From an uncultured Desulfurococcaceae archaeon (GTDB lineage: Archaea; Thermoproteota; Thermoprotei_A; Sulfolobales; NBVN01), in contig CAZVLA010000013.1 in the NCBI GenBank assembly GCA_964627805.1, positions 2,046 to 66,045 of the forward strand: a stretch of 64,000 nucleotides of DNA. Direction: 5' to 3'. The notes beneath the pieces were generated by a model. That model searched no databases. It was given only the letters and a program-made list of their open reading frames with translations, and was not told the DNA's origin. This document shows, one piece after another, positions 6,417 to 44,519 of this stretch (within the stretch, counting starts at the first letter, position 1; each line of letters starts with the position of its first letter). A program made the position numbers and the translations under genes.

Positions 6417-7365
6417 TGCCGCTCACCACTAACATACCAAAGAGAATATCCCTCTCAGTAATTATCCCTTCTAGCCCCCCATCCTTAACTACTAAGGCGT
6501 AATCTTCGTTATAATCCTTTAGCTTAGTAGCTACGGATCCTATGTCTTCCTCACTACTTACTACTATGGGCTTCGATATTTCGATATTATTTATTCTTAA
6601 GTTAAGTAATTCGTTAATTAATGCACTATGTATTTTCTCAAACACTATATGCTTACCTAGTAAGTCAAGTATGTTCTTCCACGTTAGTACACCAATTACG
6701 CTCCCCTCATTATCTAATACTGGTAATCTCCTAATTCCTGATAGGATCATAACGGTAATAGCATCCTTAAGGCTCTTGTTATTACTTATAGTTATTACTT
6801 CCTTAGTCATTACTTGGGAAACTTTAACGTTAAATTTACGTCCACTAAACATCCTAACGATTGATCCTTCCGTAAGTATTCCTAAAAACTTCATTTCATC
6901 ATTAATAACTGGTAGTGAACCTAAGTTATTATTTATCATGTACTCTAGTGCCTTGGATAATTTCATATTGACAAGTACGGATATAGGGTTACTACGCATT
7001 ACATGCCTGATCTCTAAATTAATTAAATCATAAATACTAACGTTGGCACCTTTTTCCCTACTAAGACCTAATTCAGTTAAAGGACTACCTAGTAAGCTAA
7101 TTATATCCATAGCATTTATTATACCTAATAGTGTCTTATCGGGATTTACTATAGGTAATGTCCTTAATGTACTAGTACTCATTTTCTCGCATGCATTCAG
7201 TATTGTAGATGTTGGGTAAAGGAGTGGTACATCCTTAATGATTACGGGATATAATTCAGGTACTACTTTATGTATGCTCGACTTAAAATTAGGTTTACCA
7301 TCACTTCTCAGCCATCTATTTCTTTCATATATTCTCCTTGGGGTGAATATCTTAGACAATCCCAA
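6406..7365 (-). CDS. CBS-domain-only protein (four CBS motifs)
   Basis: 319 aa. CBS motifs are GIINAMDII, GILTEGSIVRM, GVLTWKNILDLL and GIITERDILFG. It overlaps the downstream CBS gene by 11 nt. Confidence 0.8.
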   Translation of the reverse strand: MGLSKIFTPRRIYERNRWLRSDGKPNFKSSIHKVVPELYPVIIKDVPLLYPTSTILNACEKMSTSTLRTLPIVNPDKTLLGIINAMDIISLLGSPLTELGLSREKGANVSIYDLINLEIRHVMRSNPISVLVNMKLSKALEYMINNNLGSLPVINDEMKFLGILTEGSIVRMFSGRKFNVKVSQVMTKEVITISNNKSLKDAITVMILSGIRRLPVLDNEGSVIGVLTWKNILDLLGKHIVFEKIHSALINELLNLRINNIEISKPIVVSSEEDIGSVATKLKDYNEDYALVVKDGGLEGIITERDILFGMLVVSGSAP

Positions 7366-7373
7366 GTCACCCC

Positions 7374-8180
7374 CTACTTAATTAAGCCATAGTTAATTAA
7401 TGCCTTAGAAACATCATATCTGTCAACTATGCCTATTAATTTGCTTTTGTCATTAACTACGGGTACTCTACCTATTTTCTTATCTAGCATTACCTCAATA
7501 ATATCCAGTAATTCAGTATTAGGTGATACTGTAAGAGCTGGTGTAGTCATTGCATCCCTAACTTTAGTACCTTTCTTTGGTCCACTTTCAGACTCTAGTT
7601 CAATCCTTGTATAGCCTCTCTTAAGTAGATCATGCTGTGTTATTATTCCTATAACCTTAAGCTCTTTATGATTATTCACTACAGGATAACCGCTTATTCT
7701 GTAAACTATTATATTTCTCCATACCTTACTAACTCTGTCCTCAGGTAGTACGAACTTAACCTCTCTAGTCATGATGTCCTTAGCTACTACTTTACTGATG
7801 TTTCGTTCCCTACTTCGTGATAGGGAGATACTCATGAAGTTATCTAAAGAAGCTATTCCTACGTATCTGCCACTACTATCAACGACTGGTACATACCATT
7901 CATCAAACTCAAGCATAACCTTTACTGATGTTATTAGATCTTCATTTACCTTAAAAACTATGTTTGGATCATCCATTAAATCCTTAACTAATGCGTTGGA
8001 TCTAGTTGATGTTAATCTAAGTACGTGAACTCTCTTAAGTATGCCTACAACACGTTTATCTGAATCTACTACGGGCATCAATGTTAAGGCTAACTCCCTC
8101 ATAAGTGCTCTTGCATGAGTAAGTAAATCATTCGGATGTAATGTAGGGTAATGAATATCTAATATGTGTTTAATCCTCAA
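7374..8180 (-). CDS. CBS-domain-only protein (four CBS motifs)
   Basis: 268 aa. CBS motifs are GILKRVHVLRL, GIASLDNFM, GIITQHDLLKRG and GIVDRYDVSKAL. Confidence 0.8.
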   Translation of the reverse strand: MRIKHILDIHYPTLHPNDLLTHARALMRELALTLMPVVDSDKRVVGILKRVHVLRLTSTRSNALVKDLMDDPNIVFKVNEDLITSVKVMLEFDEWYVPVVDSSGRYVGIASLDNFMSISLSRSRERNISKVVAKDIMTREVKFVLPEDRVSKVWRNIIVYRISGYPVVNNHKELKVIGIITQHDLLKRGYTRIELESESGPKKGTKVRDAMTTPALTVSPNTELLDIIEVMLDKKIGRVPVVNDKSKLIGIVDRYDVSKALINYGLIK

Positions 8181-11207: not shown

Positions 11208-11759
11208 TTAGTCCTTACTAACTAAAGTATTTATGAAGCTGATTAATACATTAATTAAATCATGCTTAACATAACTTAAACAATCGAGTCTTAGATTTAA
11301 TGCTGTTGTATGGATTAAGTCATACTCGGTTATGTCTCTGTTAACTATTAGTGGAAGTATTTTCATTACTTTTCTATCTTCATTATTAATTACTATGATA
11401 TATACGTTATTACTAACCTTAAATGATATCCTAACCTCGCTACCTATCTTAACCCTTAAAGCGGACTCTCTAGTAATGGCGCTCCTTAGCTTATTGTATA
11501 CGTCATCATTACTTTGAAAAACTACGGCATTTACTGAGGCGTAGCAGTAACTGCTCAAATCATTGATTTTAAGAATTAATTCTTTAATTCTGTTCTTACC
11601 TATACTTAAGTCCGAAGTAGTTAGTATTACTTTAAACTCGTTAGTATATTGATCTAGGTTGGTGAGTCTGCACTTGAACTCCTTAACTACTCTACTTAAT
11701 GTAGTATATGTCCTCCCTTTAAGCATGCCCTCAATACTGACTAATAATTTAATGGGCAT
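11208..11759 (-). CDS. hypothetical protein
   Basis: 183-aa ORF with composition like its neighbours. No motif is recognised. Confidence 0.45.
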   Translation of the reverse strand: MPIKLLVSIEGMLKGRTYTTLSRVVKEFKCRLTNLDQYTNEFKVILTTSDLSIGKNRIKELILKINDLSSYCYASVNAVVFQSNDDVYNKLRSAITRESALRVKIGSEVRISFKVSNNVYIIVINNEDRKVMKILPLIVNRDITEYDLIHTTALNLRLDCLSYVKHDLINVLISFINTLVSKD

Positions 11760-11836
11760 AACTCCCTATAATACATTATCAATACATTGTTTTAACTTTA
11801 ATTAGACTCACTCACTACTTTGGTTAGGGCTCTGTA

Positions 11837-12076
11837 GTGACTAGGAAATTAGTATGTATAGTCTGCGGAAGGAAATTCCCTCAAGGACAGGGTGTCGTGA
11901 TAAGTATTGAAGGTAAAGAATACACCTTTCATAGCAAGTCCTGCGCTATCAAGTTCTTGAGGAGAGTAATTGATGAAGCGCAGGAGTTAGGAATTAAGAG
12001 GATAATGGATTCCGTGGAGAAGGAGTTTATTGAGGAACTTAAGAGAAGGGAGGAATTACGTAAGAAAGTAATTTAG
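11837..12076 (+). CDS. small zinc-ribbon protein (L24e/TRASH-like CxxC...HxxxC) with charged C-terminal helix
   Basis: 79 aa with a GTG start. CIVCGRKF...YTFHSKSCAIKF resembles the L24e/TRASH zinc ribbon. Confidence 0.5.
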   Translation: MTRKLVCIVCGRKFPQGQGVVISIEGKEYTFHSKSCAIKFLRRVIDEAQELGIKRIMDSVEKEFIEELKRREELRKKVI

Positions 12077-12102
12077 GGTTAAGGTGTAGCATATACTGCA
12101 GC

Positions 12103-12158
12103 TGGGATGATGAGTGTGGCGGTCTCGGATTAATGAAGACTTAGGAGCCCCCTGACCT
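12103..12158 (+). ncRNA. candidate C/D box sRNA
   Basis: C box ATGATGA 12107-12113, 12-nt spacer GTGTGGCGGTCT, D'-like CGGA 12126-12129, C' ATGAAGA 12133-12139, 12-nt spacer CTTAGGAGCCCC, D box CTGA 12152-12155. It is intergenic, and its 3' end touches the dcd stop. Confidence 0.7.
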
Positions 12159-12699
12159 ACTTTAATGACCTTAACTTAGGTAGTGTAGCACCTCTCTGTC
12201 CTTGATATTTACCACTGTACGGCCTACTTACGGGTGTTGTTAATTTAGCAAATACTACGTGAAGGAACCTAGTGCCTATGGGTATAGCTATAGGGAATGA
12301 AGTACTTAGTACTTCTATAGTTATCTGACCCTCAAACCCTCCGTCAATTATTGTTGGAGGCATCATTATACCTAGCCTAGCAAAGGTACTTCTAAGCTCT
12401 ACAAACCCCATTAGCTCAGGAGGTAGTTTTAAGTACTCTAGCGTATGTAGGAGGTACCTCCTATTGGGCTTTAATACTACGTAATCCTTAGCCTCACCGC
12501 ACTTAAATAGCTTATTAACGTTAGCACCTTCTCTAATGTAGAATACCTCATCATCTTCCATTATCTCACAATACTCACTACCTATCCTTAAGTCAAGTCC
12601 ATTCTCTCTAATTATCTTATTATCCAATGGCTCCACATGTAACCTACCGCTACTTAGGTATGACCTTAAGTCAAAGTCGGATAGGATCATACTTCCCAC
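12157..12699 (-). CDS. dcd: dCTP deaminase
   Basis: 180 aa. Motifs are the N-terminal ILSDFDLRSYL, NGLDLRIG and IIDGGFEGQITIEV (dUTPase-like fold). It overlaps thyX by 13 nt. Confidence 0.9.
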   Translation of the reverse strand: MGSMILSDFDLRSYLSSGRLHVEPLDNKIIRENGLDLRIGSEYCEIMEDDEVFYIREGANVNKLFKCGEAKDYVVLKPNRRYLLHTLEYLKLPPELMGFVELRSTFARLGIMMPPTIIDGGFEGQITIEVLSTSFPIAIPIGTRFLHVVFAKLTTPVSRPYSGKYQGQRGATLPKLRSLK

Positions 12700-13331
12700 C
12701 TACAGTAATTATTTACTAAGTGCCATATCTCAGGTATTATCTTGGACACTTCCTCAATCATTAATTTAACTACTTCACGTATTTCCCATTGTGCTTCATT
12801 ACTTAATCTTAAACAAGCAATGTGTAGCAATTCCCTCAAATTAACAGTCATAAGTATAGTCGTCTTAACAGCCTGAGGAAGTACGAATCTAGCATCCTCA
12901 GGTCTCACGCCCTTACTTATCAAGGACTTATAAACCTGAAATGAATGTGAGACTACATTCCTAAATAACTCCCTTAATTCATCATTACTCATTATTGATA
13001 TAGGTACTACGTAATCCTCACTAACTACTGAATACCTTTGTGATTCTTGAGTGTAACTGGCGATCCTATGCCTAACTAACTGATGTGACGTAACTCTACT
13101 TACATCACTTATTAAGAAAGTAAATACGACATGTTCAAGTACACTAGGGAATTTATAGGATAATCTTACGTACTCACTAACCTTCTCGTCGGGGTAATTA
13201 CTTAAGTAATACTCAATACCCTTCCTAGACACCTTCCCGGAAGATACCTTAAATGCTATCAGTAATAGCCTCCTTGGATCCCTAATAGTGCCGCCACTCC
13301 ATGAAATTAATGTTACCTTAACCATGAGCAC
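12687..13331 (-). CDS. thyX: flavin-dependent thymidylate synthase
   Basis: 214 aa carrying the ThyX signature RHRIASYTQESQRY (RHRxxSxxxxSxR). Confidence 0.9.
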   Translation of the reverse strand: MLMVKVTLISWSGGTIRDPRRLLLIAFKVSSGKVSRKGIEYYLSNYPDEKVSEYVRLSYKFPSVLEHVVFTFLISDVSRVTSHQLVRHRIASYTQESQRYSVVSEDYVVPISIMSNDELRELFRNVVSHSFQVYKSLISKGVRPEDARFVLPQAVKTTILMTVNLRELLHIACLRLSNEAQWEIREVVKLMIEEVSKIIPEIWHLVNNYCRWEV

Positions 13332-23330: not shown

Positions 23331-23468
23331 TGTGTCATAGTCTCCATCAGTAGTTAAATTGAGTAACTAAAATAACTTAATGGTAATACGGATTTTCAGC
23401 CCTACCTCATGCTTTTGGGGAGGCTCTTTTAAGTTACCTTAAGTTAAGGTGTAGTTAGGGAGGGAGCT

Positions 23469-26171
23469 ATTAAGTTAATTAGTAAGAGAGGTAAGCGAGT
23501 TAAGTATAGGAGCTTACTGGAGTACGTATACGGCGTACCTCCGTCAAAGATAGTTACTCTTAAGTATAATGGATCTGTTGTTAAGGTTATTAAGGCAAGT
23601 ACTGAGGATATTAAAAAGTATTCTGTAATATCTGATATAATAGTACGGGTAAGTAACTTTAAGAGAGCTTATTTACTGGGATCCTACTACTCAGGCAAGT
23701 CATTGAAGGCGTACTTAAGATTCTATGACGACGAGTCAAATAAGGTTTATGAGTTATATGATACCACCGGACATAAACCTTACTTCATAACGGACACACC
23801 ACCTCAGAAGATAAATGATATGAAGAATGTGGTCGAGGATCCCTCCTTTGATCATGTAGAGGTAATTAAGAAATATGACTTATTAAGGGGTGAGTATAGG
23901 GTACTTACTAAGATAGTAGTTAAGGATCCGCAAGCGGTTAGAAGATTGAGAGGTAATTTCAAGAATGTATGGGAAGCTAAGATTAAGTACCATGATAACT
24001 ACATCTTTGATAATCAATTAGTTCCTGGTATGCTCTATACCGCGAGCCACGGTAAACTAACTCGGCTAGATGTTAAGGTACGTAGTGAGATAAGGGAGTT
24101 ATTTAGCAAGGCTGTCGAAGGACTGCCCGATGAGATTAAGAAAAATGCCCTTACTTATATGCCCCTCTTCGAAGCCAAGCCCCCTAAAATACGTAGGGTT
24201 GCGATAGATATTGAGGTATACACGCCTTTTAGGGGTAGGGTACCCGATCCTACGTCAGCGCCTTACCCTATTATTAGTGTGGCTTTAGTATCTAATGATG
24301 GCTTAAGAAAGGTGTTGGTACTTGCTAGGGATGATGTGAAATTTGGTGATTTAAGTAAATTACCTAATGATTTTGAGGTGGAGGTATTCGATAGTGAATA
24401 TGCGTTGTTGATGGAGACCTTCAGAATACTGTCTAAGTACCCATTAGTAATTACTTTTAACGGCGATGAATTCGACTTACCTTATCTATATAATAGAGCA
24501 TTGAACTTAGGCATCGACCCTCACCTAATACCCATAACTGAGGTAAGGGACTTCGTAAGTGTAAGGCATGGCTTCCATATTGACCTATATAGATTCTTCA
24601 GCATCGAGGCTATACAGAACTACGCATTCGGTTCAGCCTACAAGGACAGGACCTTAGATGCCATAGCTCAAGCATTACTAGGTGAGTCTAAGGTTAAGAT
24701 CGAGGAAAGCATAAGTGACTTACCTATGGCGGAACTAATAGAGTATAATGCCAGAGACGCGGACTTAACGTTAAGACTAACTACATTTAATAATGAATTA
24801 GTGTGGAAGTTAATTGTACTAATAATGAGATTAGCTAAAATGAGTTTAGAGGACGTAACACGAAGAAAGGTTTCAGCATGGATAAAGAACTTAATGTACT
24901 GGGAGCATAAGAGAAGGAATTACCTAATACCCAATGACGATGAATTAAAGAGTATTAAGGGGGAGGTGAAGACAGCCGCCAAGATAGGTGGTAAGAGGTA
25001 TGCAGGTGCCATAGTTATCGACCCGATACCGGGTGTGTACTTTAACGTAGTAGTCCTTGATTTCGCCTCACTATACCCGAGCATAATAAAGGTATGGAAC
25101 TTAAGTTACGAAACAATAGATCCACTACCTAACTTCTGTAAGGATGGTGAAATAGCTGAGATAAAGGACGAAAAGGGTAATGTAATACATACTGTGTGTT
25201 TGAGTAGGAAGGGTATAACGTCAGAGATCGTCGGTTTACTTAGGGACTTTAGGGTTAAGATATATAAGAAGATGGCTAAGAGCCAATCAATACCTAAGGA
25301 GGAGAGGGAGTGGTATGATGTTGTTCAGAGCGCTATGAAGGTATACATAAACGCTAGCTACGGAGTTTTCGGTCACGAGAAATTCCCGCTATATACACCC
25401 TCAGTAGCGGAGTCGGTAACTGCCCTAGGTAGGTACGTAATAACGTCAACATTGAGGAAGGCTAGGGAGTTAGGTCTTAAGGTACTATATGGAGATACTG
25501 ACTCACTATTCCTCTGGAACCCTGATGAGAGGGCATTAAAGGAACTTATGGAGTGGGTGGAGAATAACTTCCAATTGGATCTCGAGTTAGATAAGGTGTA
25601 TAAGTACGTAGCTTTCGCACTTAAGAAAAACTACCTAGGTGTGAGGGTCGACGGTAAGATCGACGTTAAGGGTATGGTAGGGAAGAAGAAGAACGTACCT
25701 AAACTACTTCAAGAAACATTTACGAAAGTAGTTGAGCTCATGAGTAATATAGAGGATAACCCAGTAGTGCTTAATGATATCAAGAATAAATTGAAAGAAA
25801 CAATACATGATGTGTACATGAGGCTAAAGAATAGAGAATTCACTCTTGATGAAGTAGCTTTTAAGACAACTTTAAACAAGCCTTTAGAGGAATATACTAA
25901 AACAACACCAATACATGTTAAGGCAGCTAAGCAGCTTAGGAGATACGGCATACTAGTGAGTAAAGGCGATACTATATACTACGTAAAGACCAGAACTAAG
26001 GATAGAGTAAAGGCGGTTCAGTTAGCTAAGCTTGACGACGTTAATATTAATGAATATATAGATACGATGAAGTCTGTACTCCAGCAACTCCTACTGCCGT
26101 TTAGTATTGAGTGGGAAGAGATAGCAGGTAGTATGGGTCTTTATAACTTTATTGCTAACTCGAGAAAGTGA
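23469..26171 (+). CDS. polB: family B DNA polymerase (PolB1/Dpo1-type); start codon uncertain
   Basis: Exonuclease motifs are VAIDIEV, ITFNGDEFDLPYL and YNARDADLT. Polymerase motifs are VLDFASLYPSII, KVYINASYGVFG and LYGDTDSLF. The frame is open from 23448 and the first canonical start is TTG 23703, but conserved N-terminal sequence lies upstream. ATT 23469 is used here as a provisional start. Confidence 0.9.
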   Translation: MKLISKRGKRVKYRSLLEYVYGVPPSKIVTLKYNGSVVKVIKASTEDIKKYSVISDIIVRVSNFKRAYLLGSYYSGKSLKAYLRFYDDESNKVYELYDTTGHKPYFITDTPPQKINDMKNVVEDPSFDHVEVIKKYDLLRGEYRVLTKIVVKDPQAVRRLRGNFKNVWEAKIKYHDNYIFDNQLVPGMLYTASHGKLTRLDVKVRSEIRELFSKAVEGLPDEIKKNALTYMPLFEAKPPKIRRVAIDIEVYTPFRGRVPDPTSAPYPIISVALVSNDGLRKVLVLARDDVKFGDLSKLPNDFEVEVFDSEYALLMETFRILSKYPLVITFNGDEFDLPYLYNRALNLGIDPHLIPITEVRDFVSVRHGFHIDLYRFFSIEAIQNYAFGSAYKDRTLDAIAQALLGESKVKIEESISDLPMAELIEYNARDADLTLRLTTFNNELVWKLIVLIMRLAKMSLEDVTRRKVSAWIKNLMYWEHKRRNYLIPNDDELKSIKGEVKTAAKIGGKRYAGAIVIDPIPGVYFNVVVLDFASLYPSIIKVWNLSYETIDPLPNFCKDGEIAEIKDEKGNVIHTVCLSRKGITSEIVGLLRDFRVKIYKKMAKSQSIPKEEREWYDVVQSAMKVYINASYGVFGHEKFPLYTPSVAESVTALGRYVITSTLRKARELGLKVLYGDTDSLFLWNPDERALKELMEWVENNFQLDLELDKVYKYVAFALKKNYLGVRVDGKIDVKGMVGKKKNVPKLLQETFTKVVELMSNIEDNPVVLNDIKNKLKETIHDVYMRLKNREFTLDEVAFKTTLNKPLEEYTKTTPIHVKAAKQLRRYGILVSKGDTIYYVKTRTKDRVKAVQLAKLDDVNINEYIDTMKSVLQQLLLPFSIEWEEIAGSMGLYNFIANSRK

Positions 26172-28568: not shown

Positions 28569-28625
28569 CTGGATGATGAGTGGCGTCCTAGAATGATAAG
28601 TGATTGAAGGACCACTAGCTGATAT
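28569..28625 (+). ncRNA. candidate C/D box sRNA
   Basis: C ATGATGA 28573-28579, spacer GTGGCGTCCTAGA, D'-like ATGA 28593-28596, C'-like GTGATTG 28600-28606, 12-nt spacer AAGGACCACTAG, D CTGA 28619-28622. It starts 10 nt after the methyltransferase stop and overlaps the 3' end of the convergent gene. Confidence 0.6.
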
Positions 28626-30624
28626 CTCTAAGGCTCTCAAAGAAATTATCTAGATTGCTTACTACGAAACCTCTGTCTTTAGCTTCTCTCTCAATTAATA
28701 ATCTACGTTGCGCTCTCACAAGTTCTAATATAAATGGCTTACTAGTGGTTCTAGGTACTTCTTTAGATCTTAGTAGTGCTGGTAATATCACCTTATTAAC
28801 TAATAAATTAGATATAGGGCATAAGTCAATGCAAGAAAGACATCTCAAGCACTTACTCTTACTTATTACTGGTTTCTGATTAATTACTTTAATGGCTTCA
28901 GTAGGGCATATACTCTCGCAAAGTCCGCAATTAACGCAGAAGGCATATCTAATGCCTACCTTAAGTACTAATGACAGTAATTCCATAAAGTTTTCCCCAT
29001 CGATAATTATTCTTAAACTACGTGAGTCAATGATTATTCTAGAGTCTCCAGCATTAATTACACTTAATTCGTTTTTAAGACTGCTTAAGTTACCAATTAG
29101 GAAGTAATTCTCGATTAAGCCATTAATAACTTTTCCCTCTTTGAAAAATATCTCAGCGTGCCTCCCTTCACGATCTAATTTAAGCTCTATCTTAGTCGGT
29201 GAGCGAAGAGATAGTTCACGAATCCAATCACTTACTTTCTTCATTCCCAACCATATCTCAACCCTTCTCCTCCCCTGCCCTAGTGGATCTAACCATCTCC
29301 AAAGGTGATAGCGAACCCAGTTTATGTCCTTATTTAGTTTCCTCCTCCAGAACTCCAGCTCTCTAACCCACCTGCTCCATATGTGAGGGAATTTCTTACT
29401 TACTATGTGGTACTCAGCCATGTAAGCTGCTGGACAGAGGAAGCACCCCAGTCTATCAAATCCCTGGAAATAGAGTTCATTAACGGGTAATCCTTCACTG
29501 ATTATGTACAGCCACTCACATAATTGATCCCATTCACGAATAGGCGTTATATTGAGTGCATATGGCAACCATTTATTCCTCCATACGGAACCTACCCAAG
29601 ACCTATCTACGGACTCTAATGCTCTCTGACCTATTATCGCTAGTAATCCATCACTGAAAAATCTCTTATAGACTTTAGCGATCGGGGCTAACTTAACAAC
29701 TTTACAGCACCACCTATAATCTTTAGCTGGCGGACCGAATACCTTGACGGCATCCCAAAACTTACCATTGGCTGATGCTTCAATTAATTCCAAACCGTAC
29801 CTATTAGTTACATACTCAACATTTCTAATTACGGGAGGTAACTCGATACCTGTATTATTAAATAGTAACTTAGGCTCTATTCCGGCAATTAGGCAGAGAT
29901 GCAGGGATAGTAGCGAATCCTTACCTCCCGAGTAAGAAAGTATCACAGGCAATCTAACCTTACTACTCATTATGTATATATGCTTAACAGACTTCGACAC
30001 TAACTCTCTTAAGTACCCTTCATTAGCTCTATATACATCGTTAAGTGATGTTGAGCTCTTAAGGTTAGGGTATTTAATAGATGTCTTAATTAATGATTGA
30101 ACCCTATACTTACCTCTTCTACATAAAGCCAAAGCTATGGGTTCTCCTGAATTGCTAACTACGACTGCTTGATCACCATCACGGCTGCAGTCACCAAGCA
30201 CTTCAAGAGGTCTTACTTTATCTCTTCTAAAGACCTTAACTAATCCGTAATTAATAGCTAGGAGGATACTGTAACCAGCTAGTCTCCACCTCCACATCAG
30301 GTACTTCGGGTCGAAGTAAACCCTACCTACCTTCTCTCCACCAACAATGACCTCCTTCATGTCGTCGATATGCGGTACCTTATTTAAGTAGGTATTACCT
30401 ACATTCATGTTCAGGGTTTTTCTAATTATGTCCGTACTAAACTCATTTAACAAAGCCTCCTCTATTAATTTTAAGTCACCCTCAAAAGCTGGTCTTAAAT
30501 CGCCTGGCTCCATAATATGTAGTCTCCTAGATTTACCACCGCATATTCCACATATTGGTGTTCTTAAAGGAACGTTACAGTTGCTACACCAGTAGAGCTC
30601 TTTAATTACTCCCCAACGCCTCAT
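28615..30624 (-). CDS. PAPS-reductase/PP-loop family protein with N-terminal zinc ribbon and C-terminal 2x[4Fe-4S] ferredoxin domain
   Basis: 669 aa. It has an N-terminal CSNCNVPL...CGICGG, the PP-loop SYSGGKDSLLSL, WCCKVVKLAPI, DRLGCFLCPA, and C-terminal CVNCGLCESICP plus CLRCLSCIDLCP. Confidence 0.75.
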   Translation of the reverse strand: MRRWGVIKELYWCSNCNVPLRTPICGICGGKSRRLHIMEPGDLRPAFEGDLKLIEEALLNEFSTDIIRKTLNMNVGNTYLNKVPHIDDMKEVIVGGEKVGRVYFDPKYLMWRWRLAGYSILLAINYGLVKVFRRDKVRPLEVLGDCSRDGDQAVVVSNSGEPIALALCRRGKYRVQSLIKTSIKYPNLKSSTSLNDVYRANEGYLRELVSKSVKHIYIMSSKVRLPVILSYSGGKDSLLSLHLCLIAGIEPKLLFNNTGIELPPVIRNVEYVTNRYGLELIEASANGKFWDAVKVFGPPAKDYRWCCKVVKLAPIAKVYKRFFSDGLLAIIGQRALESVDRSWVGSVWRNKWLPYALNITPIREWDQLCEWLYIISEGLPVNELYFQGFDRLGCFLCPAAYMAEYHIVSKKFPHIWSRWVRELEFWRRKLNKDINWVRYHLWRWLDPLGQGRRRVEIWLGMKKVSDWIRELSLRSPTKIELKLDREGRHAEIFFKEGKVINGLIENYFLIGNLSSLKNELSVINAGDSRIIIDSRSLRIIIDGENFMELLSLVLKVGIRYAFCVNCGLCESICPTEAIKVINQKPVISKSKCLRCLSCIDLCPISNLLVNKVILPALLRSKEVPRTTSKPFILELVRAQRRLLIEREAKDRGFVVSNLDNFFESLRDIS

Positions 30625-30726: not shown

Positions 30727-31860
30727 TTGAGAGTAGCTTACGTGAGTAGGTACCCACCCATGCACTGTGGCGTAGCTGAGTATACCCGAATGCTCATTAC
30801 GTTCCTAAGAAGTGTAGCTCCCTCAATTAAGGTTTATGTCTTCTCGACGAACGAGTCCTTAGGCACGGAGTATATTGAGGGGGAGAGTAATGTTAGAGTA
30901 ATACCTTGTTTTAGAAGATTTGAAAGTGATTATACCTCATTATTGAATGCTTTGGAATCTATAGGTAGCTTAGATTTAATACATATTCAGCATGAGTACG
31001 GGATATTCGGATATTCATTAAGTCTATTAAAGGCATTACAGGAGGCTAAAGAGCTTGGGTTAATTAAGAAGATAGTAATTACTATGCATACGGTTCAGCA
31101 TCCATTATCAGGGGATTTCAAAGCTATTAATTTCCAGAGAAGCCTTGCAAAGTTCGTTGATTTGGTCATAGTACATAGTAGGCTTCAAGAATTTGAGCTT
31201 CAGGTTCAAGGTGTAAATATAGGTAAGATAGTTAGGATACCACATGGTACATTACTTAACCCCTACCTAGGTATGCCTAAGGATAAATTATTAGCTAGTA
31301 TCGGTGTTAAAGGTAGGTTAGGGAGGCCGTTATTGGTGCTTCCTGGATTCATTAGAAAGGATAAGGGAGTTGATGTACTAATTAATGCCTTAGATATCTT
31401 AAATAAGAAACCAATACTAGTAGTGGCTGGTGAGCCTCGAGATGAGGATGTTCTAGAGCTAATTAAGGATAGGAAGTACGTAGTATTACTTAGTAAATAC
31501 CTAAGTAGTGACGAGATACTTAGGGTTACTGCCTCAGCAGATATAATAGTCATGCCCTATAGGGATAGGCCGGGAACGTACTCCGTAAGTGGCATACTTC
31601 ACCTCTCTATGGGTGCTTTAAAACCCATCGTGGGTACTAGAGTACCTAGGCTCGTGGAACTCTATGAGAACGCTAATAAATTAACCGTAACTCCTGAGGA
31701 CTCTAAGGAATTAGCTAAGGTAATTAACTGGGTACTAAATCATTACGACTACGCAGTGGTTTACGCTTCATCACTATATAGCTACGCAGTAAGGGTGCAA
31801 TGGGCGCGGATGGCTAGGAGGCATCTAAGAATTTACAGAAGAATATCTAAGGTTAAGTAG
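30727..31860 (+). CDS. glycosyltransferase, GT-B fold (GT4-like)
   Basis: 377 aa. It has the N-terminal VSRYPPMHCGVAEYT and the C-terminal donor-binding-like region VVAGEPRDE...ADIIVMPYRD. Confidence 0.75.
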   Translation: MRVAYVSRYPPMHCGVAEYTRMLITFLRSVAPSIKVYVFSTNESLGTEYIEGESNVRVIPCFRRFESDYTSLLNALESIGSLDLIHIQHEYGIFGYSLSLLKALQEAKELGLIKKIVITMHTVQHPLSGDFKAINFQRSLAKFVDLVIVHSRLQEFELQVQGVNIGKIVRIPHGTLLNPYLGMPKDKLLASIGVKGRLGRPLLVLPGFIRKDKGVDVLINALDILNKKPILVVAGEPRDEDVLELIKDRKYVVLLSKYLSSDEILRVTASADIIVMPYRDRPGTYSVSGILHLSMGALKPIVGTRVPRLVELYENANKLTVTPEDSKELAKVINWVLNHYDYAVVYASSLYSYAVRVQWARMARRHLRIYRRISKVK

Positions 31861-31911
31861 AGACTAATCACAAGAACCCTTTAATACCCCCCTATAATTA
31901 CGGGTGGGGAG

Positions 31912-32175
31912 GTGAGCGTACTAAGCTTTATACAGCAACTAACGACTCAGCTTATGTCAATAGCTTGGCTTCTCTTTCTAGTCACTTGGATAGTTGGTTG
32001 GGCAATAAAAGGTTCTCCAGTTCCTTTCCATAAAGTTAAGAGAGCTGGGCAGAGCCTAGTTGAGGATGCAGTAATGGCTGCGTTCTGGATGGCTATGGGC
32101 TCAACTATCTTCGCTATAATATCGTACATAGTCAATAATGTATACCAACCGATGCCACCTGCACCCTCACCTTAG
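31912..32175 (+). CDS. small two-helix membrane protein (VirB2/CedA1/TedC-like hairpin architecture, tentative)
   Basis: 87 aa. Hydrophobic helices IAWLLFLVTWIVGWAI and AVMAAFWMAMGSTIFAIISYIV are joined by the basic loop KGSPVPFHKVKRAGQS. A GGGGAGGTG SD-like run sits at the GTG start, and the exact start is uncertain. Confidence 0.5.
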   Translation: MSVLSFIQQLTTQLMSIAWLLFLVTWIVGWAIKGSPVPFHKVKRAGQSLVEDAVMAAFWMAMGSTIFAIISYIVNNVYQPMPPAPSP

Positions 32176-32189
32176 AAGGTGATGCCTAG

Positions 32190-33560
32190 TTGGACATACT
32201 TATACTAGCATCTAGCTTAGCGATGCTAAGCTACGTAATTGGTGTTATAGTATATGCTTTACCTGTGCCCTATAGGCCTATTAAGAAACTAGGTATGGCT
32301 TTCATAATTGATGCTATCGTAGCAATGATTCTAATAACTATCTATAACGTATTCATTTACGTAGGTGACTTCATATTAAATCTACTTAATTTAACGTGGC
32401 TTGACTTTTATAGATGGTTGGTAAGTAGAACAGCTGTGTTAGTTGGTGTATTTACGGGGCTTTCATACTTACTATCAATGATTAAGGTCTCGCAGTACTC
32501 ATTTATTCTCTCTCCCCTTAATCTAGTCCTTACGTATATCTCACTTTCCCTATCTGCATTAAAGATTGTCTACTTTCTCTCGACACTCATCTTTAAGTTT
32601 CGTAAGGAGTTAGTACTACTTGGAGTGCTTCTTTACTCATTACCGTTTAGGATAGGTAAGGGAGTAGGGGCGTTCTTAATAGCTTGTTCAATAGTACTCT
32701 ACGTCGGTTTCCCTCTAATGCCTGCTTTCGTGAGTTACTTTGAGGGTAACATAATTAGTAGCGGTAACTTCGGACCGACCACAATATATGGTACTATAGT
32801 TGATGGAGCTGGTAATTACCTACCGTACTCAGTACTTTTAGTATACCTAAAGAAAGTAAGTAGCCCTCACGCAATACCGTCGGCAGTAATACTAACTAAT
32901 GATAGAGGTAAGTTCGTATTAGGTGATGGTAAGGATATAATACCTAAGAACACTACGTTGTATCTACGTGTAGAGTATTTAGGCTACGTATTTGTACCTC
33001 AGCCAAATGAATTCATCGCTAAAGGATTTAAGAAGAATATAGTATTGAGGGTGAATTCCATTATTTACTCAGCAGGTGTAGCATTACTCATACCTTTTAA
33101 CTATGTATTACTGAATAAGTTCATTACTGGCAACCTAATCGATGTAACATTAAAGCCTATTAGTAATAATAAAGTACTAAGCTTAACACTAATTAAGTAC
33201 CACAGCACACCAATATACAGAATAGCAATCAATAACAAAGAATATATATGTAATTGGTCGGTCTTGAGCTGGAGGGGTATTAAATTAAGTTCTTGCACAT
33301 TAAACATTAAGCTAAGTAATGACTTATTCAATATAATAATATTCCATGAATCTATGGAACCCAAGAGACCCAATGTAAATCAGAAGAGATTACTATTATT
33401 AAGTGGTATAAGCGACTTAATAGCTGGCTACATATCATTAGGTGTTTCACTTCTTTACTCATTGATTTTCCTGCCAGGTATGTACGTCTCACTTCTCTTA
33501 GCTATGTCAGCGGCTCTTTCTAGGGTATTAGGTGGTGGAATAAGAATTAAGCTAATATAG
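32190..33560 (+). CDS. polytopic membrane protein with central beta-rich extracytoplasmic domain
   Basis: 456 aa. It has about six N-terminal TM segments, a ~200-aa hydrophilic beta-rich insert (GTIVDGAGNYLPYSVLLVYL...) and two C-terminal TM segments. The TTG start is preceded by AGGTGA. Confidence 0.6.
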   Translation: MDILILASSLAMLSYVIGVIVYALPVPYRPIKKLGMAFIIDAIVAMILITIYNVFIYVGDFILNLLNLTWLDFYRWLVSRTAVLVGVFTGLSYLLSMIKVSQYSFILSPLNLVLTYISLSLSALKIVYFLSTLIFKFRKELVLLGVLLYSLPFRIGKGVGAFLIACSIVLYVGFPLMPAFVSYFEGNIISSGNFGPTTIYGTIVDGAGNYLPYSVLLVYLKKVSSPHAIPSAVILTNDRGKFVLGDGKDIIPKNTTLYLRVEYLGYVFVPQPNEFIAKGFKKNIVLRVNSIIYSAGVALLIPFNYVLLNKFITGNLIDVTLKPISNNKVLSLTLIKYHSTPIYRIAINNKEYICNWSVLSWRGIKLSSCTLNIKLSNDLFNIIIFHESMEPKRPNVNQKRLLLLSGISDLIAGYISLGVSLLYSLIFLPGMYVSLLLAMSAALSRVLGGGIRIKLI

Positions 33561-33569
33561 GGTGAGGAA

Positions 33570-33755
33570 ATGATGAGTAGGTTAAGAAGATATAGCATAG
33601 AAATTCTATTGACGGTATTTATAGTGTCTGTACTCCTAAGTGAGGCTGATAACGCATCCCGTAGCGATATAATTATACTTTCCATAGTGTTAATTACGGC
33701 TTTAATAGCTACTAGGTTTCTTAGGAAAACCTTAGGTACCGTAGCTACACTCTAG
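33570..33755 (+). CDS. small two-helix membrane protein
   Basis: 61 aa with helices IEILLTVFIVSVLL and IIILSIVLITALIATRFL. The ATG is preceded by GGGTGAGGA, 9 nt after the upstream stop. Confidence 0.4.
   Translation: MMSRLRRYSIEILLTVFIVSVLLSEADNASRSDIIILSIVLITALIATRFLRKTLGTVATL

Positions 33756-44422: not shown

Positions 44423-44519
<97 letters not shown>

Follow-up and report, generated by a model that had tools for sequence, protein, structure and literature searches.

We analysed a stretch of 64,000 nucleotides (the window; positions 2,046 to 66,045 of contig CAZVLA010000013.1, assembly GCA_964627805.1) from an uncultured Desulfurococcaceae archaeon, and a group of three membrane-protein genes within it. 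Three open reading frames (ORFs) of 87, 456 and 61 amino acids (aa) lie on the plus strand at window positions 31912-33755, separated by gaps of 14 nt and then 9 nt. They start with GTG, TTG and ATG, respectively, and a GGTG or GGTGAGG motif was present 5′ of every start. The same coordinates, spacing and Shine-Dalgarno-like motifs had been given in a preliminary description of this DNA, in which the genes were proposed to be a divergent Ced- or Ted-type pilus or DNA-exchange module, or an undescribed relative of these. We found that the group is very likely the chromosomal Ced (Crenarchaeal exchange of DNA) locus of this Desulfurococcaceae-type archaeon, a domesticated minimal apparatus resembling type IV secretion. 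The profile and synteny comparisons show a conserved adjacent pair of genes, cedA1 for a predicted VirB2-like pilin and cedA for a predicted VirB6-like polytopic membrane protein.

The first gene, cedA1 (31912..32175), encodes the 87-aa protein. Its product contains two hydrophobic helices joined by the basic loop KGSPVPFHKVKRAGQS, and the hairpin peptides quoted in the preliminary description were all found in the translation. Against the NCBIfam model NF041797 (Ced_CedA1) the protein scored 120.3 bits with E 2.8e-35, passing the equivalog cut-off of 100, and its residues 4-77 aligned on model positions 2-75 of 75. The pilin of Aeropyrum pernix (PDB 8dfu_B, 'Pilin protein', CedA1) was matched with E 1.3e-22 over residues 3-75 against 4-76; the window pilin thus aligns from residue 3 with an unprocessed pilin, and it is exactly as long as APE_0220a (87 aa). 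In the precomputed Pfam annotation of the genome collection the protein was assigned to PF27251, named 'CedA1'; a local copy of Pfam-A gave no significant match for any of the three proteins. The 87-aa product is the predicted CedA1 pilin.

Through a scan of 185,579 species genomes, 29 related loci were obtained, all from Desulfurococcales in the broad sense. In all 29, which is every locus with the sequence present, cedA1 is placed directly 5′ of cedA, and the same order was found in Candidatus Aramenus and in A. pernix. Between the window and its nearest relative (L030, GCA_054043105.1), 72 of 73 CedA1 residues were identical despite 27 changes at third codon positions, showing strong purifying selection. 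Given the recurrence of the pair and the concentration of CedA1 divergence at third positions, the arrangement is not a matter of chance.

The second gene, cedA (32190..33560), encodes the 456-aa protein, the presumed channel and pilus-assembly platform. NCBIfam NF041796 (Ced_CedA) matched its residues 2-192 on model positions 6-199 of 259, with E 4.1e-39 and 134.7 bits. CedA occurs in a short form, about 260 aa in Sulfolobales, and in a long form like that of the window. Comparison of the long-family profile with the short-form CedA by hhalign gave a probability of 100% and E 6.5e-46 over 191 columns. BLASTP aligned the window protein end to end with the 452-aa CedA of A. pernix, residues 2-455 including the insert described below, at 24% identity and E 1e-22. 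In the multiple alignment, P152, F153, R154 and G160 were invariant in both forms, and the conserved loop LPFRIG(K/R) was present.

AlphaFold2, run on the family alignment, gave a model of the whole 456-aa protein with a predicted local distance difference test score (pLDDT) of 83.8. The model contains six N-terminal helices (residues 2-23, 29-50, 52-66, 70-99, 104-150 and 157-184) followed by an all-beta region at 199-386. The six N-terminal segments and beta-rich insert described earlier were therefore borne out, while the two C-terminal transmembrane segments proposed with them were replaced by one 43-residue hydrophobic helix. This helix (residues 404-446, 33399..33527) carries a conserved FLPG kink with the conserved Pro-Gly pair at 429-430, and is followed by the basic tail RVLGGGIRIKLI. 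The helix is common to the long and short forms, and Y432, L436 and G449 are conserved in both. At the other end of the protein, residues 1-58 (32190..32363) form a two-helix hairpin homologous to the CedA1 pilin: the NF041797 model matched CedA residues 2-55 at E 1e-6, and the long-CedA family profile matched 8dfu at E 2e-5. A pilin-like N-terminus of CedA has already been published by Beltran et al. 2023 (PMC9905601).

The homologue search with CedA gave 23 sequences of 408-475 aa, most of them about 450 aa. When 1.84 billion representative proteins were searched exhaustively with the profile, 234 members of the family were obtained at E<=1e-3, and the best 150 of them were listed. Most of these 150 were 445-500 aa long and matched over the full length; about 25 were 246-300 aa long and matched in two stretches. 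Among the relatives listed, all named short forms came from Sulfolobales and were labelled 'DNA import protein CedA', and the named long forms, from Desulfurococcales, Fervidicoccus and metagenome-assembled genomes of Thermoprotei, were labelled 'hypothetical protein'. The window CedA thus appears to be an ordinary member of the long form, which is the commoner one but has no name of its own. The word 'divergent' in the preliminary description fits it only insofar as the long form scores under the naming cut-off of NCBI.

The long form differs from the 260-aa CedA of Sulfolobales by an insert of about 200 aa (residues 199-388, 32784..33353); in the alignment the short forms lack approximately residues 206-400. 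AlphaFold2 on the insert alone gave two beta-sandwich domains with a pLDDT of 92.3 and a predicted TM-score (pTM) of 0.88. Foldseek against PDB gave weak and generic matches only; the lowest E was 1.5e-4, and TM-scores over the whole query were 0.26-0.34. The matches were tandem beta-sandwich surface proteins, namely SpaA, EbpB and BcpA (Gram-positive pilins), SlaB of the Sulfolobus surface layer (S-layer), the carboxypeptidase-like domain of teneurin, the N-terminal extension of SusC, and transthyretin. Pfam CarboxypepD_reg was matched weakly in three of 14 family members (best E 0.0095).

The insert probably lies outside the cell, judging by its composition and by the helices next to it. Charged residues made up 16-18% of the insert vs 23-31% in nine cytosolic proteins of the window, and Asn, Ser, Thr and Tyr together 27-28% vs 14-20%. 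N-X-S/T sequons in the insert numbered 1.7 per 100 aa across the family, double what shuffling would give and several times as dense as in the cytosolic proteins. Of 22 sequences, 19 shared a conserved cysteine pair (C354/C369). Positive charge was found in the loops beyond the two helices flanking the insert, on the opposite side (L4+L5, +2.6; C-terminal tail, net charge +1.95). With low confidence, the insert could stand out from the pilus base and form an external stalk or collar that passes through the space beneath the S-layer, or it could be a contact module. No mention of a long-form extracellular insert was found in the accessible Ced literature.

The closest known system is the Ced locus of A. 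pernix (APE_0220a, PDB 8DFU), followed by that of Sulfolobales. A. pernix shares with the window the 87-aa unprocessed CedA1, the position of cedA1 immediately upstream of cedA, and a long-form CedA (452 aa) with the same beta-rich insert. It differs in having a 461-aa CedB-like ATPase directly downstream of cedA, where the window has the 61-aa ORF. The Sulfolobales loci (Saci_0569/0568/0567 of Sulfolobus acidocaldarius; L031 of Ca. Aramenus) have the same gene order as the window, a small pilin, a polytopic CedA and a small protein of two helices, and their genes stand about 10-15 nt apart; the Ca. Aramenus genes encode a CedA1 of 77 aa, a CedA of 261 aa and, in third place, a product of 52 aa. 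CedA in Sulfolobales has about 260 aa instead of 456, cells make contact by Ups pili, and Ced pili have not been observed. Ced genes are known from Sulfolobales, Desulfurococcales and Acidilobales (PMC11823120), and CedA1 forms a conjugative-type pilus (PMC9905601). Bacterial type IV secretion systems (T4SS) resemble the locus in the two-helix hairpin pilin with a basic loop and in a polytopic partner with a pilin-like N-terminus (PMC9905601). The bacterial conjugative systems differ in that Ced transfers DNA by import and that the window locus is chromosomal. We know of no homologues of VirB3, B5, B7, B8, B9, B10 or B11 for Ced.

The third component expected of such a system is an ATPase. In Sulfolobus it is unlinked, with cedB at saci_0748 and cedA at saci_0568 (PMC11823120); CedB and CedD are reported in most Desulfurococcales and VirB4 in Desulfurococcus (PMC11868833). 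In more distant relatives (Acidilobaceae, Calypsonella and three Pyrodictiaceae) and in A. pernix, we found one or two ATPases directly beside the long-form cedA. Both the unlinked ATPase of Sulfolobus and these adjacent ones speak for the Ced reading. HerA/FtsK/VirB4-like genes of this kind, from Acidilobaceae, Pyrodictiaceae and A. pernix, are located at L025:1645-3165, L027:4852-6720(-), L028:4719-6701(-) and 11551-12939, L029:2930-4540(-) and 6494-7729, and L034:11649-13034. With the CedB, CedD, HerA and VirB4 models, the cedA-adjacent ATPases of relatives gave E values from 1e-7 to 1e-20, and none came near the equivalog cut-offs; the better ones reached 46-72 bits vs 600-700 for the NCBIfam CedB and CedD models. 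With scores so low, the Ced ATPases of Desulfurococcales are probably under-annotated in the same way as CedA.

The working of the locus may be pictured from established work, namely the genetics of S. acidocaldarius and Saccharolobus islandicus and the pilus structure of A. pernix. CedA would oligomerise in the membrane and make both a translocation channel and a platform. Unprocessed CedA1, together with bound lipids, would be pulled from the membrane on this platform and built into a hollow pilus. HerA/VirB4-like ATPases (CedB/CedD or VirB4), with their genes at other places in the genome, would then draw DNA of a neighbouring cell through the conduit, and the imported partner DNA would serve recombinational repair.

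Several observations weigh against the Ced reading. No ATPase of the HerA, FtsK or VirB4 kind was found in the 64-kb window; this had been said in the preliminary description, and the scan of the largest ORFs confirmed it, as did a comparison with seven Ced-linked ATPases of relatives, none of which any window ORF resembled. The 134.7 bits of the window CedA are below the NF041796 equivalog cut-off of 330. The CedA of A. pernix is also below it (109 bits), and all long relatives tested (Fervidicoccus, Pyrodictium, Acidilobaceae, A. pernix) scored 100-167 bits, with the N-terminal part only, while the 261-aa CedA of Ca. Aramenus, a member of Sulfolobales, reached 367 bits. The low score is therefore due to architecture, as the model fits the short form of Sulfolobales. 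The positive-inside rule gave contradictory orientations for the N-terminal half of CedA; since this half is self-inconsistent, the placement of the insert is the only topology that we infer. Neither sequence searches nor Foldseek gave a match to VirB6 or VirB2, with libraries that allowed no direct test of either, and the profile found only the CedA1 pilin among PDB sequences. To our knowledge, no function has been demonstrated for any long-form CedA.

DNA import by Ced has been shown genetically only in Sulfolobales, with a short CedA and no visible Ced pili (PMC11823120), which weighs on the same side and leaves room for a different function. The CedA1 pilus of this lineage could serve mainly in adhesion, aggregation or biofilm formation, with the insert used for surface attachment and not for DNA import. 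The likeness of the insert to adhesive and structural surface proteins (the Gram-positive pilins and SlaB) agrees with such a role, and so does a window without an ATPase or DNA-processing gene. However, DNA import requires proteins to which CedA1 and CedA are orthologous (PMC11868833), and in relatives the cedA1-cedA pair adjoins ATPases of the FtsK/HerA/VirB4 type, which resemble DNA translocases. The fold matches of the insert, moreover, are generic, with E no better than 1e-4. We consider a mainly adhesive pilus unlikely.

The third gene of the locus (33570..33755), which follows cedA after 9 nt, has the position of cedA2, and here too part of the evidence is unfavourable to the Ced reading. 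Its 61-aa product contains two hydrophobic helices; position and architecture alone make it a CedA2-like candidate. A two-helix ORF of 49-72 aa starts within a few bases of the cedA stop in 24 of 26 related loci; these small ORFs share a basic N-terminus, two hydrophobic helices and a short polar loop. The 61-aa ORF gave no NCBIfam match at E<=1, including the CedA2 model NF041798. The 52-aa ORF in the cedA2 position of Ca. Aramenus matched NF041798 weakly (23.9 bits, cut-off 80). A profile of the other small ORFs scored the 61-aa ORF at 4.2 bits and the CedA2 of Sulfolobales at 1.4 bits, both within the shuffled controls. Sequence homology to the small ORFs of relatives or to CedA2 was thus rejected as evidence, and the conservation of position and architecture was kept.

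Sequence similarity of the 61-aa ORF was found only with the nearest relative, where 21 of 49 residues were identical and the differences at the three codon positions were 24/15/27. The counterpart in this relative (L030:11378-11560), conserved in its protein sequence, has no canonical full-length start, which is a further point on the unfavourable side. Its first canonical start, a TTG, would cut the first helix and leave 43 aa, and a GTG stands just upstream in another frame; the gene may be frameshifted or decaying, or the assembly may be wrong here. On balance we favour, with some reserve, a fast-evolving CedA2-like gene for an accessory membrane subunit. According to published work, CedA2 is missing from A. 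pernix and shows no conservation beyond Sulfolobales (PMC9905601, PMC11868833), and in the A. pernix locus we found no small two-helix ORF after cedA. A positionally conserved CedA2-like ORF was not found described in the accessible Ced literature.

The locus is set among housekeeping genes. The ten largest ORFs of the window (G+C 40%) are all of this kind, and of 20 large ORFs scanned, 19 were housekeeping genes and one had no family match. They include topoisomerase VI A and B, RqcH, DNA ligase, PolB, LeuRS, RNA polymerase B, A′ and A″, EF-1alpha and others. As the rest of the window is filled with such genes, we regard the Ced locus as chromosomal. Flanking genes are also common to most of the related loci, with a phosphoadenosine phosphosulfate (PAPS) reductase-like gene upstream and, downstream, an 82-aa gene, a CxxCxxCC protein, riboflavin kinase, endonuclease V, proteasome beta and a NOG1-type GTPase.

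This setting bears on the possibility that the genes belong to the T4SS of an integrated conjugative element or plasmid, or to a Ted-type system, instead of a domesticated chromosomal Ced. Parts resembling VirB2, VirB6 and VirB4 are common to Ced, Ted and the plasmid T4SS (PMC9905601), and the Ted system of Thermoproteales (TedC/TedA/TedB) follows the same three-part logic with adjacent pilin and channel genes (PMC9905601). Nevertheless, the synteny with housekeeping genes (PAPS-reductase-like, endonuclease V, proteasome beta, NOG1-type GTPase) is conserved in more than 20 genomes, and by this context and the 19 housekeeping ORFs an origin from a mobile element was rejected. TedC, which carries a cleaved signal peptide, does not resemble CedA1 in sequence (PMC9905601), whereas the window pilin matches the A. 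pernix CedA1 closely and is clearly of the CedA1 type by NF041797 and 8dfu. Of the affinities proposed in the preliminary description, Ced was thus upheld by these matches and those of CedA, and both Ted and an undescribed system were rejected. Altogether, a mobile or Ted-type system is very improbable.

A gene for a GT4 glycosyltransferase (30727-31860, same strand) lies 51 nt upstream of cedA1, and conserved linkage to it had been named as a sign of a glycan or cell-envelope role. Such a module, made of the GT4 and the three membrane proteins, can be dismissed as most improbable: the arrangement is shared with L030, but no GT4 homologue stands beside cedA1 in the other 27 syntenic loci, and the proteins have specific Ced homology. 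The linkage hypothesis was thus largely refuted by synteny, in favour of the Ced reading. Being common only to the window and this 70%-identical relative, the GT4 gene is a lineage-specific neighbour outside the module. In the other 27 loci, cedA1 directly follows the divergent PAPS-reductase-like gene, and the GT4 gene between the two looks like a recent lineage-specific insertion.

In the window, the product of the PAPS-reductase-like gene (28615-30624, minus strand) has 669 aa, matches NCBIfam PRK13795 ('hypothetical protein') and carries a 4Fe-4S ferredoxin domain at its C-terminus. The gene is conserved beside cedA1, in divergent orientation, in about 20 loci of Desulfurococcaceae, and this neighbourhood probably reflects plain genome collinearity.

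The region 31877..31911 on the plus strand, within the spacer between the GT4 gene and cedA1, is a candidate promoter or leader of the operon. It contains A/T-rich TATA-like boxes, TTTAATA at 31880-31886 and TATAATTA at 31893-31900, and a G-rich run, GGTGGGGAG, just ahead of the start codon. A scan for bacterial-type promoters and terminators gave 7 sites vs 7.9 expected and is uninformative for an archaeon. By eye we found no ANTTTC-type motif, which is defined for Sulfolobales only, in the 51-nt spacer.

Two other genes of the window deserve mention. At the beginning of the gene for family-B DNA polymerase (region 23445-23705), the first canonical start is a TTG at 23703. The 68 in-frame codons 5′ of it (23499-23702) share 78% identity with the L030 orthologue at its N-terminus; GTT stands where L030 has its GTG start, and the frame contains no ATG, GTG or TTG following the stop at 23445-23447. 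Either a start of non-canonical type or a base error may account for this. The tRNA-Lys(UUU) gene at 44423-44519 has a length of 97 nt, which suggests an intron-containing archaeal tRNA gene.

The finding is not fundamentally new, as Ced is already known in Desulfurococcales, and its novelty is modest: a new unannotated Ced locus and two small points, the long-form insert and the positionally conserved CedA2-like ORF. With long-form CedA at 100-167 bits against a cut-off of 330, and its named relatives called 'hypothetical protein', Ced loci outside Sulfolobales are probably under-annotated. The two-helix gene that keeps its position after cedA in Desulfurococcaceae qualifies the published non-conservation of CedA2 outside Sulfolobales.

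A wider proposal is possible, and we hold it tentatively. The long-form insert may be an extracellular stalk, collar or cell-contact module which allows a true Ced pilus through the S-layer and the finding of a partner without Ups pili, replacing the missing VirB5 and VirB8-10; it may have been lost in Sulfolobales once Ups pili took over contact, and the small ORF after cedA would be the overlooked counterpart of CedA2 outside that order. If this is true, loss of the insert would explain why Sulfolobales have no extended Ced pili. A. pernix, alone so far in having a solved Ced pilus, possesses the long-form CedA. The probably extracellular two-domain insert offers a way into two questions, by what route the pilus passes the envelope and how cells without Ups pili make contact with their partners.

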